A stretch of DNA of 20,000 nt from an uncultured virus (IMG/VR IMGVR_UViG_3300014050_000019) (IMGVR_UViG_3300014050_000019); one strand, 5' to 3'; shown: positions 10,014 to 19,163, counted from the first letter of the stretch. The notes: generated from the sequence alone by a model not told the origin. Program-made: numbers and translations.

Positions 10014-11948
10014 TTATGCAGAAATGTCTACAATCTCACAGTTACCATCTGATGTACATGCAAGCGTAGCATTGGTAGATGTTCCGTCTTCTGTTTCATA
10101 AAATGATAGGTCTTCCCAGCGAATTTCTTTTGGCATTCTTGCAAGTAGCGACTCATACTCTTCTTTTGTTACTTCTTGATATGGAGCCTGCTTATATGTA
10201 TGCTCTGAATGTGGTAAAAATGAAATTCCAGATACTTCATCAAAATGCTTGTACACCCATGCTCCAACTTCCATCCACTCATCTTCTTTAACTGATACGG
10301 TAATAGAAGGTTTATGTTCACACCAAGCACGTTGATAAACTAACCAAATGTTTAAATGGTCTAATGCTGTCAAATCATTTCTAACAATTGCGCCATCTGG
10401 GGCTTTTACTGGAAAGGAAAAGACATAGGTATCATTTGGTTTCATTACATCATCTTCTACTGGAATTCCAACTTCTTTTAGAAATGTAGAGATTGGATCT
10501 CCCTTAGAGCCACGAACCGTTCTAATGTAATATGGTGAATGCCATGGATGCATTCCTGAAGATACCCCGACCAATTGGGATACTGTTCCAGAAGGCTTTA
10601 CACATGTAATAGCTGCAGACTCAGGAATCCCAATTTTTCCTGCTTCATCTTTATTTGTTTCTCTTGCTGATTCTCTTAAAGTCATAAGAAATGCCTCTAA
10701 GGAAACTAAATCCTCTTTACCAGACATAAACTTATGTCCAAACTGCCCTGTAAGGGAAACCCCCAGTAGGCGTTCTTCTTCTGTATTATCTTTCCAAATC
10801 TTACGAAGATACTTAAAATCTGTAAGCGTTGATTGCCATGTTCCAAGAATAGTGGCTAATCTTACTTTATTCTGAATATCTTTCTTTGTATCTTTTTCAC
10901 GTAATACGACTTCTGAAAGATTACAAAACTGATAAGGACGCAAAATAATTTCCGAGCAAGGGTTTGTTCCATAGTGAATTTCAGGATCCCTTCTTCCATA
11001 TTTGGCTGCTTGTGCTTGTGCTGCTGCAACGTTGTAAATTCCACGTTCACCAGACTTTGAGTCATATAAATTTTTCCATTCTGCTATAAATTGTTCCATT
11101 GCTGGCTTACGAGAATATGCCACTGAGTTATTTGAAAGTGCACGTTGAGTATTATTTTCCCACCAGTTACCAGACTTTGCTGCTGCCATTTCAATATCAT
11201 TAATGTTAGAAAGAGAAATCATAGCAGATCGTCTTACTCCACCAACAACTACAACTTCACCAATCTTACACATAATATCGTGTGCCTCAATAGGTTTTAA
11301 CTGACGACCTACTGCATTCTTAAATTTTGCAATTGTAAAATCAAAAAGATTAACAAGTGGCTGAGGTCCAGATGAACGACCACCCATTGTCTTTAACCTT
11401 GCTCCTGCAGGACGAACCTTTGATACATCGATTGCTGGAATGTGACCAGTCCAAAGTAATGCAAGGAGCTCACGGTATGCCTTTGCCCATCCTTGCTTAG
11501 AATCTTCTACAACAATTACCGTGTCTGATTTTTCAAGTGATTCTGGAACGGCAGGAAGTTTATTAACATACTTATACTCTACAGAAAATCCAACACCTGT
11601 TCCACACATTAAGATATACATAGTTTCATCAAAAGAACGTGGGTTATCTACTGGAACAAAAGAACAGTTATACCCTGCGACATGATCTCTATCTAATGCA
11701 GCACCTGAAGTCATTACGGCTCTCATTGATGGCATTACGTTTCTATTAAAAACTGCTTCTTTTAATTCTGTAATTAATTCTTTAGATGGAACGTAGTTAT
11801 AGTTTTCTTTAAGATGATTAGTCATAAAGTCAAAATAGCGATCTACTGTTTCACCCCAAGTTTCACGACGACCTTCTTCTGGGATCCATCTTGCATATCG
11901 AGATAGAGCAATAAAGTTTTCGTATGGGTTAGCAATAGTTTTTGACAT
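10014..11948 (-). CDS. nrdJ: Class II adenosylcobalamin-dependent ribonucleotide reductase
   Basis: 644 aa; YNC, GTNPCSEI (thiyl radical Cys), TCVKPSGT, WCEHKPS and C-terminal ACTSDGNC redox pair; no radical-generating small subunit nearby. Confidence 0.93.
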   Translation of the reverse strand: MSKTIANPYENFIALSRYARWIPEEGRRETWGETVDRYFDFMTNHLKENYNYVPSKELITELKEAVFNRNVMPSMRAVMTSGAALDRDHVAGYNCSFVPVDNPRSFDETMYILMCGTGVGFSVEYKYVNKLPAVPESLEKSDTVIVVEDSKQGWAKAYRELLALLWTGHIPAIDVSKVRPAGARLKTMGGRSSGPQPLVNLFDFTIAKFKNAVGRQLKPIEAHDIMCKIGEVVVVGGVRRSAMISLSNINDIEMAAAKSGNWWENNTQRALSNNSVAYSRKPAMEQFIAEWKNLYDSKSGERGIYNVAAAQAQAAKYGRRDPEIHYGTNPCSEIILRPYQFCNLSEVVLREKDTKKDIQNKVRLATILGTWQSTLTDFKYLRKIWKDNTEEERLLGVSLTGQFGHKFMSGKEDLVSLEAFLMTLRESARETNKDEAGKIGIPESAAITCVKPSGTVSQLVGVSSGMHPWHSPYYIRTVRGSKGDPISTFLKEVGIPVEDDVMKPNDTYVFSFPVKAPDGAIVRNDLTALDHLNIWLVYQRAWCEHKPSITVSVKEDEWMEVGAWVYKHFDEVSGISFLPHSEHTYKQAPYQEVTKEEYESLLARMPKEIRWEDLSFYETEDGTSTNATLACTSDGNCEIVDISA

Positions 11949-12004
11949 TTTTTAAATAACACCTTTTCTCCGCCCTGCGGTTTATATTTTTTAGTTGAAG
12001 TCTT

Positions 12005-12013
12005 ATTCTACCA
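12005..12013 (-). promoter_or_regulatory. Extended -10 promoter for nrdJ (TGGTAGAAT)
   Basis: Matches the TGn-TAnnnT motif seen upstream of other genes; lies in the intergenic gap. Confidence 0.5.
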
Positions 12014-12037
12014 AACTTCTATTTAAAGAGGAAGGGG

Positions 12038-13039
12038 TTATGAAAATCTTTCTTCCAAATGACTAAATGCATTCTTAGTCAACTTAATCCAATCATATTC
12101 TTCATGTATTTTAGTTGACTGAGCAAAATAATATCCTGAATATGCTTTAAAATTAATTACAGATTCATACATTAATTGTTCTAGATGTTTTTCATCTGGT
12201 TTAAACATAAGACCTAAATGTGGATCTCCTACTGCTTTTGGCAATTCTTCATCTGATAAACTAGACTTAAGCTTTAGTGGACCTATATACTTTTTATACT
12301 GAGCCCAATCATAAGTTGTTATAGTTGGCATTCCAGTTGCAAGGGCTTGTAATGGAATAAAACCAAAACCTTCTCCCCAGCTTGGATAGATCAGAACGTG
12401 GTGTGAATGATAGAGAGAAACTAATTGTTCTGCAGAATACTCGTCTTTAATTACTTTAATATTATTATATATGTTTTCTGGTAATCCAAAATTACCATAT
12501 TTATCATATACTCTAATTGTATGAGAATGATGAGATTTAATAGTAAGTTGATAGTCTGGATTGTCTCCAAACATTCTTATAAAAGTATCTACAACTAACT
12601 GACCAGATTTTCTAGGTGCTGGTTCTCCAACATGTAAAAACTTAAATGGTCTTCCTTCTCTTAATTCTCTTTTATAAGGAGTCCATATTTTTTCTATTCC
12701 GTGAGTGTATGTTTTAATTGGAACAGTAACTCCATTATTTTTAAAAACTTCTGCGTTCCAGTCTGATGTTGCCCAAACTTCATCACATAAATTCATACGT
12801 TCAGTCCACTCTGGTCTAATGCCAGTAGATTCCCATGGAGTATAACCAATTTGATATTGTCCTCTATGCATTTTATAATGATGAGGTTGTGTAAAATTTA
12901 ATTGTAAAGGCGTATTTGCATTTGTCCAAGTAACAATGTGTCCCAGGCTTTGTAATGATTTAACTATATTTTGTGCGGCATAGCCAAATCCTGTCGCTGG
13001 ATTTAATCCAGGTCTTGGTATAGATAGTGATATTTTCAT
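12038..13039 (-). CDS. Glycosyltransferase, GT-B fold (GT4-like)
   Basis: 333 aa; TGFG, YTPWES, RKSG and YPSWGEGFGFIPLQALATGMP (GT4 EX7E-like signature). Confidence 0.88.
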   Translation of the reverse strand: MKISLSIPRPGLNPATGFGYAAQNIVKSLQSLGHIVTWTNANTPLQLNFTQPHHYKMHRGQYQIGYTPWESTGIRPEWTERMNLCDEVWATSDWNAEVFKNNGVTVPIKTYTHGIEKIWTPYKRELREGRPFKFLHVGEPAPRKSGQLVVDTFIRMFGDNPDYQLTIKSHHSHTIRVYDKYGNFGLPENIYNNIKVIKDEYSAEQLVSLYHSHHVLIYPSWGEGFGFIPLQALATGMPTITTYDWAQYKKYIGPLKLKSSLSDEELPKAVGDPHLGLMFKPDEKHLEQLMYESVINFKAYSGYYFAQSTKIHEEYDWIKLTKNAFSHLEERFS

Positions 13040-15800: not shown

Positions 15801-15802
15801 AG

Positions 15803-15875
15803 CCTCTTCGGCAGGAGTCGAACCTGCGACCAGTCGGGTAGAAACCGAATGCTCTGTCCTCTGAGCTACGAAGAG
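15803..15875 (-). tRNA. trnR: tRNA-Arg(TCT)
   Basis: Cloverleaf CTCTTCG/CGAAGAG, D arm GCTC/GAGC, anticodon loop TT-TCT-AC, T arm GCAGG-TTCGACT-CCTGC; no encoded CCA. Confidence 0.92.
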
Positions 15876-15887
15876 TAGGTTATTAAA

Positions 15888-16283
15888 TTAAGATCTACCA
15901 GATCTTTGATAAGTTCTTATTCTATGACAATTTGCACAAACTACTTCACATTTAGCAATCTCTGCTTTTATAATCTCAATATCTTGAGTATGATTTCTAT
16001 AAGCAGAAACACTAAAGTCTTTATTATCTGAAATATGATCTAGGTCAAGCATATAGTACGGATATTTCTCTCCACAGTCTACACAGCCGAACGACTCTTT
16101 ATAATCTCTAATATGCTTATCAATAGCCCGCCTATAACTTCTTCGTCTGGTATTATAATTAACCTTAACGCTTTCGCTCAAGTGATAAGCTATAGTTCCC
16201 TTAGAGCATCCTAGTATTTCTACTATTTGATTATAAGTTTTGCCCTCAGATCTAAGCCTGAAGATATCCTCTTTATGTCTCAT
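15888..16283 (-). CDS. HNH endonuclease with N-terminal HTH
   Basis: HTH-like GKTYNQIVEILGCSKGTIAYH; CVDC...DLDH...CEVVCANCHRIRT; start re-assigned to leaderless ATG 16283. Confidence 0.85.
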   Translation of the reverse strand: MRHKEDIFRLRSEGKTYNQIVEILGCSKGTIAYHLSESVKVNYNTRRRSYRRAIDKHIRDYKESFGCVDCGEKYPYYMLDLDHISDNKDFSVSAYRNHTQDIEIIKAEIAKCEVVCANCHRIRTYQRSGRS

Positions 16284-16289
16284 AGTTCG

Positions 16290-16318
16290 ATTATACAAAA
16301 TGGATCGAATCATGTCAA
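16290..16318 (-). promoter_or_regulatory. Perfect consensus promoter TTGACA-17-TATAAT (leaderless HNH transcript)
   Basis: Minus strand TTGACA (16318-16313), TATAAT (16295-16290), then 6 nt to ATG. Confidence 0.8.
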
Positions 16319-16325
16319 TAGTATT

Positions 16326-16399
16326 TGGAGCGGATGATGAGAATTGAACTCACCCCTTCTGCTTGGAAGGCAGAGGCACTACCGATATGCAACATCCGC
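16326..16399 (-). tRNA. trnG: tRNA-Gly(TCC)
   Basis: GCGGATG/CATCCGC acceptor stem, anticodon loop CT-TCC-AA, T arm GTGAG-TTCAATT-CTCAT, U discriminator plus encoded CCA. Confidence 0.92.
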
Positions 16400-16401
16400 A
16401 A

Positions 16402-16535
16402 GAGAACTCGGTTTATAGACTCCACACCGTAAGGCTTCCCCGCATGCGTTCTCAACATGGTGTAGTCGACTAGCTATATCGCTACATAACACGTACTTCT
16501 GCAACCGACGGCAGGTGTAGAGGTGCTGGTTCCAG
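16402..16535 (-). ncRNA. Candidate structured RNA(s) between tRNA-Asn and tRNA-Gly
   Basis: GC-richer than the flanks, no credible ORF, three consecutive helical domains. Confidence 0.4.
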
Positions 16536-16608
16536 CTGACCCACCAGGTCTCGATCCTGGGACATTCGAATTAACAGTTCGACGCTCTACCAACTGAGCT
16601 ATGGGTCA
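16536..16608 (-). tRNA. trnN: tRNA-Asn(GTT)
   Basis: TGACCCA/TGGGTCA acceptor stem, anticodon loop CT-GTT-AA, G discriminator; atypical T-loop ATCGAGA; no encoded CCA. Confidence 0.9.
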
Positions 16609-16683: not shown

Positions 16684-16965
16684 CTATTTAATTTTATTAA
16701 CTCTTCTCATATGAGTCCTAATACGATGACAATTACTACATACGATCTCACACTTAGCAATTTCCTCATCTATCTTCTTCTTGGACAATGTAGGAATTAA
16801 TTCCATAACATTTGCATGCTTCTTGCCACGTACGTGGTCAAAATCCATGACATAATATGGATAATACTCCTTACAGTCCATGCAAGGAATAGTTTCTTTA
16901 AGGGTTCTGATGTACAGGGCCAAATTAGCCTTCTGCTTGGCTATAGAGAGCTTTTCGGACTTCAT
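16684..16965 (-). CDS. Small HNH endonuclease
   Basis: CMDC...MDFDH...CEIVCSNCHRIRT; paralog of 15888-16283 lacking the HTH; promoter TGCTACAAT at 17011-17003. Confidence 0.85.
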   Translation of the reverse strand: MKSEKLSIAKQKANLALYIRTLKETIPCMDCKEYYPYYVMDFDHVRGKKHANVMELIPTLSKKKIDEEIAKCEIVCSNCHRIRTHMRRVNKIK

Positions 16966-18014: not shown

Positions 18015-18186
18015 CTTGATTTCCTTTATATACTTGAACTGAATCCATAAAAGTTACTTTACGACTTGTTATATATCCGCCTTTTTCATCTAGCTGTTGT
18101 CTAGCTGATATTTCATCTGCTGCAAGAATCTGAATAATCATTTCAACCTTATATGTGTAGCAAGATGTGTCTTCTGATGTATCCAT
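18007..18186 (-). CDS. Hypothetical 59-aa protein
   Basis: MDTSEDTSCYTYKVEMIIQILAADEISARQQLDEKGGYITSRKVTFMDSVQVYKGNQVG; SD AGGA; overlaps the FkbM start. Confidence 0.65.
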   Translation of the reverse strand: MDTSEDTSCYTYKVEMIIQILAADEISARQQLDEKGGYITSRKVTFMDSVQVYKGNQVG

Positions 18187-18244
18187 ATTAATCCTAGTCG
18201 ACTAGTATTTTATATATAACAAAATGTTAATAAAATATTTTTTT

Positions 18245-18352
18245 CTACTTACAGCTTTTCTGATGATTTGTTAATGTCATATGGGCAAATCCAGATCTTA
18301 CCTCTATATCCCGCCCACATTTATCACACTTTACAGTTCTATGAGATGCCAT
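18245..18352 (-). CDS. 35-aa C2HC zinc-finger-like microprotein
   Basis: MASHRTVKCDKCGRDIEVRSGFAHMTLTNHQKSCK; leaderless behind TTGACT-17-TATAAT. Confidence 0.6.
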   Translation of the reverse strand: MASHRTVKCDKCGRDIEVRSGFAHMTLTNHQKSCK

Positions 18353-18359
18353 TGTCTCC

Positions 18360-18388
18360 ATTATATATTATTATAATATTCTAGTCAA
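18360..18388 (-). promoter_or_regulatory. Promoter TTGACT-17-TATAAT
   Basis: The -35 box (18388-18383) lies inside a TAGTCAACT palindrome copy; 7 nt to ATG 18352. Confidence 0.6.
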
Positions 18389-18446
18389 CTGGTTTATATT
18401 TACCTATTTATCCTTTATATATATTATATTTACTATAGTGGATACT

Positions 18447-18585
18447 TGGGGATTTAGATTTTAGCAAAACCCCCCTTTCCCCCCTTTAACAAATATGCTA
18501 AAGTTGGATAAAGAGAGAAGCTTCACTAAACTCCCAAGAATTACTTGGTACATTTGAGTTTCAGTGTAAACCCCCCGAAAACCAG
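18447..18585 (-). ncRNA. Candidate G-tract structured RNA (~140 nt)
   Basis: Follows the promoter at 18592-18621; hairpins at 18515-18576, 18484-18503 and 18448-18475 with multiple G-U pairs on the minus strand; three G6 runs. Confidence 0.5.
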
Positions 18586-18591
18586 ATCCTA

Positions 18592-18621
18592 AGTATAACA
18601 TGACAGATTTTTCGCAGTCAA
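18592..18621 (-). promoter_or_regulatory. Promoter TTGACT-18-TATACT, TG-extended
   Basis: Minus strand TTGACT (18621-18616) and TGT-TATACT (18600-18592). Confidence 0.65.
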
Positions 18622-18753
18622 TACTTTGTTAAAAATATTTTTAGTCAACTACTATTTCAGATTTATGAAAATGTTAATATAGATTTTATTTGTATGATCC
18701 AGGGTTTGTAAATGTCCGTTTTGTCCATATAGTGCGCCCATATATAGGCTAAA

Positions 18754-18769
18754 TGTGACCTAACTCACA
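18754..18769. promoter_or_regulatory. CRP-family-like site TGTGA-N6-TCACA
   Basis: AAATGTGA-CCTAAC-TCACA, exact core consensus. Confidence 0.65.
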
Positions 18770-18870
18770 GACTTTTTTTTCAAATTGTCCGACATGTCCG
18801 ATTTGCGACTTGATATTTGTCAGTGGGTAGGTATATGATTATAGTATAAGAAAAATTAAATAAAGGTAAA

Positions 18871-18911
18871 TGAGCCTAGCAAATAATCCGAAAGGTGAGC
18901 CTAGCAAATAA
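18871..18911 (+). repeat. Perfect 16-bp direct repeat TGAGCCTAGCAAATAA x2
   Basis: Copies at 18871-18886 and 18896-18911, separated by TCCGAAAGG. Confidence 0.85.
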
Positions 18912-18947
18912 ATTACCTAAGTTTATCTAAAAAGAAAGGAGTTCCAA

Positions 18948-19163
18948 ATGAACTCACTAAATGTAATATCAGTAGTAGTAGAACCTACTCATCCAATGTC
19001 TTCTAGTAATACTAAAGATAACAATATCTTCCGCCTTGCTAATGGTAACTACATTAGCCGTATGGCATATGTCTATATGGTAGCCGATAAAGGCTTACTA
19101 TCTCACCGCTACCTCTCACCTAATGAGAGTAAGTGGGTATTCGCTAATAAGGTAGGTGCTTAA
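18948..19163 (+). CDS. Hypothetical early protein
   Basis: 71 aa, strong SD AGAAAGGAG. Confidence 0.8.
   Translation: MNSLNVISVVVEPTHPMSSSNTKDNNIFRLANGNYISRMAYVYMVADKGLLSHRYLSPNESKWVFANKVGA

Follow-up and report, generated by a model that had tools for sequence, protein, structure and literature searches.

The best explanation for an element on the minus strand of a DNA stretch of 20,000 nucleotides (the window), which comes from a 29-kb, about 23% complete fragment of an uncultured virus (IMG/VR IMGVR_UViG_3300014050_000019), is that it constitutes the gene of an approximately 150-nt structured RNA of uncultured freshwater actinophages, directed leftward from a conserved extended -10 promoter. 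As read from the sequence, this explanation includes transcription of the RNA by the main (SigA-type) polymerase of the host, at a divergent early control region. The RNA looks like a two-state, three-strand switch, in which a middle strand (S2) would pair either with a 5' strand (S1; state A) or with a 3' strand (S3; state C), both states being mutually exclusive. We tentatively propose, with a probability of roughly 0.4, that it works as a conformational switch of the terminator/antiterminator type at the head of the leftward early unit.

Promoter, extent and non-coding character of the RNA

The promoter is composed of a -35 box TTGACT (18616..18621) and an extended -10 element TGt-TATACT (18592..18600), both on the minus strand, with an 18-nt spacer from the -35 box. 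The initial annotation, made from the window alone, had placed a TG-extended promoter pointing leftward at 18621-18592, and the comparison with relatives corroborated it: the arrangement TTGACN-N15-TGN-TANNNT was found with identical spacing in all the 45 distinct upstream stretches, TTGACN included. Judged by its boxes, it is a sigma-70/SigA-type promoter with a TG extension, and the true 5' end of the RNA is probably near 18588-18585.

The structured RNA, as delimited by the match of our covariance model R1, extended over 18439..18592 on the minus strand (180.6 bits, E value of about 1e-40), vs 19.8 bits for the same model on the plus strand. Many G-U pairs were seen in the minus-strand RNA, in agreement with the earlier claim that such pairs fix its orientation. 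As had also been claimed, no credible open reading frame (ORF) follows the promoter, and about 150 nt are non-coding: the sole ORF of at least 40 aa inside the RNA region (18461-18601, 46 aa) starts within the -10 box and its homologues are broken by 1-2-nt indels in the relatives, where the RNA lengths are 132-156 nt. A coding reading was rejected on these grounds, and a UUG mini-ORF located 3' of the G tract was discarded as well, being out of frame in the L019 type.

When the whole window was compared with Rfam 15 at gathering thresholds, three tRNAs only were recovered, none of them at the RNA; with permissive filters, the best E values in 18100-19000 were 2.8-10, far under the gathering scores. 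Among the titles listed for freshwater actinophage non-coding RNA, none concerned such an RNA, and no wider absence is claimed. The kept promoter, the non-coding character, the strand-specific covarying structure and the lack of an Rfam family together uphold the suggestion that this is a novel phage non-coding RNA. The module lies at a divergent strand switch, in a single copy, in each of the three long contigs.

Relatives of the element

A 22-mer across the G tract retrieved 11 viral contigs, with homologues in 11/11, and two further anchors together with one metagenome scan brought the collection to 46 distinct RNA sequences (subfamily 1). A more divergent subfamily 2 was obtained with the motif G6-TA-G7 and the model R1, which gave 18 matches with E <1e-5, 15 of them distinct. 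The resulting 61 distinct versions were drawn from 53 metagenome loci and roughly 30 viral contigs; L166 (21.7 bits) and L211 (21.6 bits), with a GC content of 0.51, were left out as doubtful, and the same applied to 5 weak matches on the opposite strand of loci that carry the element. Two alignments were used: A4, made with MAFFT, and A6, a model-based alignment of the 61 sequences.

The homology block began about 20 nt upstream of the -35 box and ended at about 18406, with mosaic flanks on both sides, the first gene 3' of the element being of at least 10 different kinds. No match was returned by blastn of 18150-18960 against 50,697 GenBank phage records, and 185,579 species genomes, searched on both strands for exact copies of the invariant 5' 22-mer, gave 0 matches. 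Searches for the element were also negative at 14 loci surrounding distant methyltransferase relatives, at 10 loci matching the pattern only, and in three of three Streptomyces phage (Stanwilliamsviridae) genomes.

Among the runs listed, 20 hold part of the stretch, and 12 of these are recorded as RNA. The RNA-library contigs from 4 runs were broken at the G runs and included the promoter; they show neither strand nor ends, carry-over of DNA is possible, gaps in their cover carry no weight, and expression is not claimed from them. Structured RNAs of phages on the dominant freshwater Actinobacteria are almost unexplored, and here is one that is abundant in metagenomes and has a clear promoter and no match in Rfam.

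Three strands, two folds and the covariation behind them

The window RNA had a minimum-energy fold of -64 kcal/mol vs a mean of -44.6 for shuffled sequences (z -4.78), and none of 200 shuffles was as good. Every stem listed in the initial annotation was present in this fold, namely the parts of the long stem (GGGGGGTTT/AAGCTTCTC, CACTGAA.CTC/GAGTTTAGTG and CCAAG/CTTGG) and the hairpin CTTTAGCA/TGTTAAAG.

All the strands that make up the architecture lie on the minus strand. S1 (18542..18576) reads G6-UUU-ACACUGAAACUC-AAAUGU-ACCAAGUA and is paired to S2 in state A or self-folded in state C, as GGGUUU/AAACUC closed by UGGU/ACCA, with 97-98% of the alignment cells paired. S2 (18506..18538; CUUGGG-AGUUUAGUG-AAGC-UUCUCUCUUUAUCC) includes the pyrimidine tract and is the shared strand, complementary to both S1 and S3. 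Between S2 and S3 sits the hairpin hp2 (18484..18503; CUUUAGCA-UAUU-UGUUAAAG), which abuts the G tract and whose sequence is free, its structure being kept. S3 (18443..18484; G6-AAA-G6-UUUU-GCUAAAAUCUAAAU-CCCCAAGUA) is a look-alike of S1, and from its second G run onwards (18475-18443, G6-UUUU-GCUAAAAUCUAAAU-CCCCAAGUA) it is a visible copy of it; its distal part (18443..18463, CUAAAAUCUAAAUCCCCAAGUA) is paralogous to that of S1 and, in state C, forms pairs with proximal S2.

State A, that is S1:S2, was the window's own minimum-energy fold. State C, that is S2:S3 with hp2 at the tip, was the minimum-energy fold of most relatives, and for the full RNA it was the lower of the two in 46/46 sequences (means of -44.7 vs -35.7 kcal/mol). 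Two other pairings were considered and dropped: UUUAGCA/UGCUAAA, which is lost in the L024 type, and a helix closing the 5' leader on the 3' tail, which reached -7.5 kcal/mol in the window and -12.5 kcal/mol in L158 and was weak in many other versions.

The initial annotation had proposed covariation and G-run conservation in relatives as a check on its claims, and both were observed, with compensatory changes for both pairings and G runs invariant in 61/61 versions. On A4, 90.2% of the state A cells were paired, vs 43-69% when the partners were slid; on A6, 91.3% were paired and both sides had changed in 16 of the 40 pairs. State C gave 93.0% paired on A4 and, on A6, 95.2% paired with both-side changes in 25/43 pairs, a result that none of 500 shuffles reached, A6 having been fitted to state C and its state C counts being inflated in consequence. 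S2 occurs in three different versions plus a deletion form, each of which is still complementary to the nearly fixed S1. The internal pentamer of S1 was identical to the 3' pentamer of S3 in all 46 sequences (38 CCAAG, 4 CCGAG, 3 CUAAG and 1 CCAGG), and the CUUGG of S2 changes in step with both partners, from CCAAG/CUUGG to CCGAG/UUCGG or CUAAG/CUUAG. The distal helices of S3 (helices 3-6 of the state C model on A6) contributed 12 pairs with both-side changes, and in hp2 all 7 modelled pairs had changed on both sides, in at least 6 sequence versions.

These compensatory changes support both the S1:S2 and the S2:S3 pairings as predicted. The RNA thus has what is expected of an attenuator, an alternative pairing that excludes the terminator and is kept in evolution (S1:S2 vs S2:S3). 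Two paralogous G-rich strands that compete for one pyrimidine-rich strand, with both pairings maintained, offer a natural system for studying co-transcriptional strand exchange, and a part that might be used in synthetic switches.

The G tract

The tract G6-AAA-G6 was located on the minus strand at 18484-18470, where the initial annotation had put it, and it forms the 3' arm of the pyrimidine-tract hairpin. Three spacer forms were found in the 61 versions, G6AAAG6 (n=39), G6AG7-8 (n=7) and G6UAG7 (n=15), and the G runs themselves did not vary. The spacer follows the letters of the pyrimidine tract: AAA lies opposite UUU or UU in 38 of 39 versions and opposite a single U in the other one, A opposite U in 7/7, and UA opposite UA in 15/15. 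Because of this covariation, we consider that selection keeps the G tract as one arm of an RNA helix. The invariance of the G runs, together with the drift of the tract between C and U, can be accounted for since G pairs with both C and U and two G-rich strands share one pyrimidine strand. The same free drift between C and U led us to reject specific mimicry of an anti-Shine-Dalgarno sequence by the pyrimidine tract.

A G-quadruplex-forming RNA was one of the functions that had been suggested, and an element acting via an intramolecular quadruplex of its G runs could draw on the three G6 runs of the window RNA and on their invariance. When folds were computed with the quadruplex option of ViennaRNA, no quadruplex was chosen and the folds were identical to the plain ones in 15/15. 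Every G run has a covarying pyrimidine partner, and pairing of G with both C and U explains the invariance without a quadruplex. On this in silico evidence we regard a quadruplex element as very improbable.

Terminator-like hairpin and proposed switch

The pyrimidine tract, hp2 and the G tract together form a hairpin of 41-49 nt with a predicted dG of -17.2 to -28.8 kcal/mol (mean of -22.7, 46 sequences). In the window it is directly followed by a terminator-like tail, the U run UUUU then GC (18464..18469, minus strand). The distance from the end of the hairpin to the U run was 0-2 nt, ahead of UUUUGCUAA in 45 of the 46 sequences and of UUUUCCUAA in 1/46, and a stable hairpin directly before a tail, as in intrinsic terminators, was found in every one of them. 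Compared with the U-rich tract of about 7-9 nt of intrinsic terminators, UUUUGCUAA has 5 U in 8 positions, and subfamily 2 carries UUUGCUAAAA. A simple terminator scan, whose rule of a 3-8-nt loop does not fit this hairpin, made no call at the U run. For RNA truncated after the G tract, nearly the same mean energy was obtained with the last G run kept off S2 as with S1:S2 forbidden (-30.8 vs -31.1 kcal/mol), the former fold being the lower in 26/46.

We read this arrangement as a terminator and an antiterminator because the hairpin abuts the U run and S1 copies the 3' arm of the hairpin. State A could form first during transcription, and the full RNA is predicted to be more stable in state C. 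The core hairpin of S2:S3, ending at the U run, would then act as an intrinsic terminator, and the G6-UUU of S1, a copy of the 3' arm of that hairpin, would occupy the pyrimidine tract first in an antiterminator-like manner. The switch would thereby set the amount of read-through from the RNA promoter into the leftward early genes, in the direction we presume. A putative factor that binds or stabilises the self-folded S1 might tip the balance, which would make the S1 self-hairpin a candidate sensor and possibly an anti-antiterminator. If termination is true, actinophages would thereby control their early genes in a new manner.

Several observations weigh against this proposal. No sensor was found, that is, no conserved ORF or leader peptide, no known protein site, no ligand pocket, and no riboswitch or T-box match. 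The U run is short, with 4 U in subfamily 1 and 3 U in subfamily 2. The unconstrained fold of the cut RNA pairs the last G run in 46/46, and therefore S1 would act only kinetically. Beyond the U run the distal part of S3 is conserved and covarying; simple termination at the U run therefore does not explain it. The RNA-library contigs cover parts of the element and give no starts or ends, and they may come from DNA. The pentamers change jointly even where S2 is without a partner (L123 and the CCAGAUG group), and therefore gene conversion between the repeats may contribute to their identity, in addition to the inflation of the state C counts on A6 noted above. Finally, the gene that would be regulated is not constant (at least 10 different first genes), and in the window the stretch from the RNA to the next ORF contains a second strong promoter, from which it follows that a free-standing RNA gene fits at least as well as a leader.

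Such a gene could encode a trans-acting phage RNA (a small RNA, a decoy or a protein sponge), whose two folds would be the nascent and the mature forms; RNA or protein of the host or the phage would be bound by the strand left exposed, which is S1 for state C and the G-rich S3 for state A. Its own strong and conserved promoter, the discrete mosaic module with different genes on each flank, and the further promoter 3' of the module in the window all suit this explanation; conservation reaches about 18440, beyond the U run, and RNA-library contigs of 151 and 178 nt from two further studies span little beyond the RNA, which is a weak hint. No 3' end or terminator was found after 18440, and the lack of any match to the 5' 22-mer in the species genomes leaves it without a perfect target or source in them. 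As for the G runs acting as a sponge of an RNA with a C-rich loop of the 6C type, no support was obtained: RF01066 was absent from four of four metagenome-assembled genomes, reached through a WhiB search (they are partly mis-binned phage contigs, and the control was weak in Corynebacterium), and in the incomplete contigs G000, G001 and G002 no gene for a hairpin with a C-rich loop was seen, the C runs being promoter spacers or terminator stems. We hold a trans-acting RNA to be somewhat unlikely.

The length of the S2:S3 duplex raises a further explanation, an element for processing or stability, where the duplex would serve the leftward early transcript either as a cleavage site of the RNase III type or as a stabiliser hairpin at its 5' end, with S1 holding back the pairing. 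RNase III hairpins occur in the early transcripts of T7 and lambda. Several variants have an extended duplex with few breaks (reaching 24 contiguous pairs plus hp2 in L046), all 46 sequences have state C as their ground state, and a site just after an early promoter and ahead of varied genes suits a generic signal at the transcript level. In the window version the duplex is interrupted by bulges, and the invariant S1 and the U run are left unexplained, so that processing appears improbable to us as the function of the RNA.

Replication-origin reading

The initial annotation had also proposed a transcription-primed R-loop origin. The RNA would then be the primer for an origin of the R-loop or hybrid G-quadruplex type, with the nascent G-rich S3 freed in state A, either to remain on the template or to form a DNA:RNA quadruplex beside the AT block, and hidden in state C. 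A promoter directed into a G-rich RNA beside easily melted DNA, as in origins of the ColE1 RNA II or T4 R-loop type, is indeed present, the AT block (18410..18431, described below) also serving as promoter or ribosome site for the gene that comes next. All 61 versions keep the G runs unchanged, and the arrangement of a pair of long G runs in the non-template strand with a T run behind them, as in the mitochondrial CSB II (conserved sequence block II), was found in 61/61. In 7/61 versions it is G6AG7 or G6AG8 followed by U's, which are the commonest variants of the human CSB II, found in 37% and 35% of genomes, respectively, in the excerpted text of PMC5027508. ColE1 RNA II likewise has two conformations, one of them priming, as stated in the excerpt of PMC11012335, and the phage module occurs once per contig at the strand switch.

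On the other side, the covariation of the spacer with the pyrimidine tract indicates selection of the G tract as an RNA helix arm, no quadruplex appeared in the 15 quadruplex-enabled folds, and the AT block has the look of a promoter or ribosome site belonging to the gene that follows. The minimum of the cumulative GC skew fell near the RNA in G001 and about 5 kb away in G002; the long contigs examined were 23-56% complete, and all the skew extremes coincided with strand switches between blocks of gene orientation, so the skew is confounded. No Pfam replication domain was recognised among 53 ORFs in the first 35 kb of a 64-kb relative, to the left of and around the RNA. In RNA-library contigs, one relative joins 18328 to 18712 without the module, a hint only, and the element was not found in the three Stanwilliamsviridae genomes. 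Independent support was thus obtained neither from skew nor from context nor from covariation; the origin is unproven and currently disfavoured, and we consider it improbable.

Even less probable is a self-regulating primer switch, where state A would leave the CSB II-like G tract (G6-A/AAA/UA-G6-8 plus a U run) on the DNA beside the (TA)n block, as an R-loop or hybrid quadruplex that primes replication, and state C, with the G tract captured by the pyrimidine strand, would be the off state. If such a switch exists, it would be the phage counterpart of the mitochondrial light-strand promoter (LSP)/CSB II system, with ColE1-like control in one 150-nt RNA, and priming, if true, would link phage replication with the mitochondrial CSB II mechanism.

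Flanking DNA, phage group and neighbouring genes

The AT-rich DNA that had been described at 18360-18440 is present and it is not featureless, since it holds a TATAAT-like block at 18431-18410 and a promoter at 18388-18360. The block (AAAUAUAAUAUAUAUAAAGGAU, 18410..18431, minus strand), which was the candidate unwinding element of the initial annotation, is kept in position in the alignments; TATAAT, TATATT or TATTAT was visible in most downstream stretches of the relatives (uncounted), and in the L019 type the block is the spacer between AAGGA and ATG. It is probably the -10 and ribosome-site region of the following gene, to judge from these motifs. An antisense promoter in the block was discarded, the match on the plus strand covering 9 of 12 positions.

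The separate promoter of the window, TTGACT-N17-TATAAT (18360-18388, minus strand), matches 11 of 12 consensus positions. An ORF for a 35-aa CxxC zinc-ribbon protein (18245-18352, minus strand) has its ATG 8 nt after this promoter, and its mRNA would therefore be leaderless or nearly so. In relatives, other tiny zinc-ribbon ORFs (39-46 aa) come right after the RNA.

The window points to a lake actinophage. The 64-kb relative encodes WhiB, a GP88-family protein and DUF7455, as well as a 581-aa protein (annotated 'hypothetical protein' in the matches) that matched Streptomyces phages only, in 127 of 127 records; the pair of glycosyltransferase and ribonucleotide reductase is syntenic with Stanwilliamsviridae phages. 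We assign the phage to the actinophages because of these three lines. The runs containing the sequence carry the labels freshwater, lake, aquatic, wastewater, marine or unspecified metagenome; the top-ranking ones are freshwater, as are three of the four runs whose contigs were compared. The ribonucleotide reductase of the window (10014-13039, minus strand) is 66% identical to Streptomyces phage versions and adjoins the glycosyltransferase, in an order that matches Jay2Jay and Genie2; we presume, as a guess, that it is perhaps of class II, the PHROG and GenBank records naming no class.

On the other side of the strand switch, TTGTCAGTG, 8 nt and TATGAT (18817-18839, plus strand) point rightward to an ORF at 18948, and TGTCAG, a C-rich spacer and TANNNT were seen at comparable sites in G001, in G002 and at the far end of G000. 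The TTGTCAGTG-TATGAT motif is a candidate promoter of the PafBC type (RecA-NDp). The palindrome CTAGTCGACTAG and two near-copies (TAGTCAACT.) occur at 18194-18205, 18382-18391 and 18642-18651, preceding leftward promoters by about 25-60 nt. In 18 of the 45 distinct upstream stretches the last 75 nt before the RNA contain a TAGTYRACTA box, which might serve as an operator or as an activator site.

In the leader of the ORF at 18948, a direct repeat GAGCCTAGCAAATAA (18872-18886 and 18897-18911, plus strand) flanks UCCGAAAGG. The piece of about 40 nt that it delimits (18872-18911) was common to RNA-library contigs of two studies with unrelated flanks, where no other part of the region reached such depths; this small module is widely shared. 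The RNA-library contigs in which 18328 is joined to 18712 belong to one sample (runs X1 and X2) and to a relative about 88% alike; the junction skips 383 nt, including the RNA gene and its promoter, and intervening letters are possible. Further away, three tRNA genes (Arg-TCT, Gly-TCC and Asn-GTT) are interleaved with two HNH-endonuclease ORFs: 15802-16608 (-), 15888-16313, 16684-16965 (-).

Comparison with known systems

Terminator/antiterminator attenuators are known from bacterial leaders, of the trp type and of the PyrR type with an anti-antiterminator. As in them, the phage RNA has a shared middle strand that pairs with either an upstream or a downstream strand, a downstream hairpin that ends at a U run, an upstream strand that self-folds, and nearly equal predicted energies at the decision point. 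Unlike them, it shows no leader peptide, known protein site or ligand pocket and precedes no single downstream gene family, and its 3' strand continues past the U run, the place of presumed termination, as a conserved copy of S1.

HK022 put and lambda nut are cis-acting RNAs of early leaders that modify the polymerase, and they are not known as two-state designs. The phage RNA resembles them in its position directly after an early promoter and ahead of a long early unit; no likeness of structure or sequence to them was noticed.

With ColE1 RNA II, as portrayed in the excerpt of PMC11012335, it has in common that it is a promoter-driven structured RNA with G-rich segments and two conformations that would decide the fate of the 3' part. 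It differs in its length (about 150 vs 555 nt), in having no sequence or Rfam relation to RNA II and no origin evidence, and in the lack of a convincing antisense promoter like that of RNA I, the only candidate being the 9/12 match at 18399-18427 (+).

The likeness to the human CSB II, as given in the excerpts of PMC5027508, PMC4176368 and PMC3488243, concerns 7/61 versions, which carry G6AG7 or G6AG8 plus a run of U/T on the non-template strand just 3' of a promoter. Unlike in CSB II, the promoter of the phage RNA is of the bacterial sigma-70 type, and most versions of the RNA have AAA or UA spacers matched by complementary changes in the upstream pyrimidine tract, because of which we favour selection on an RNA hairpin.

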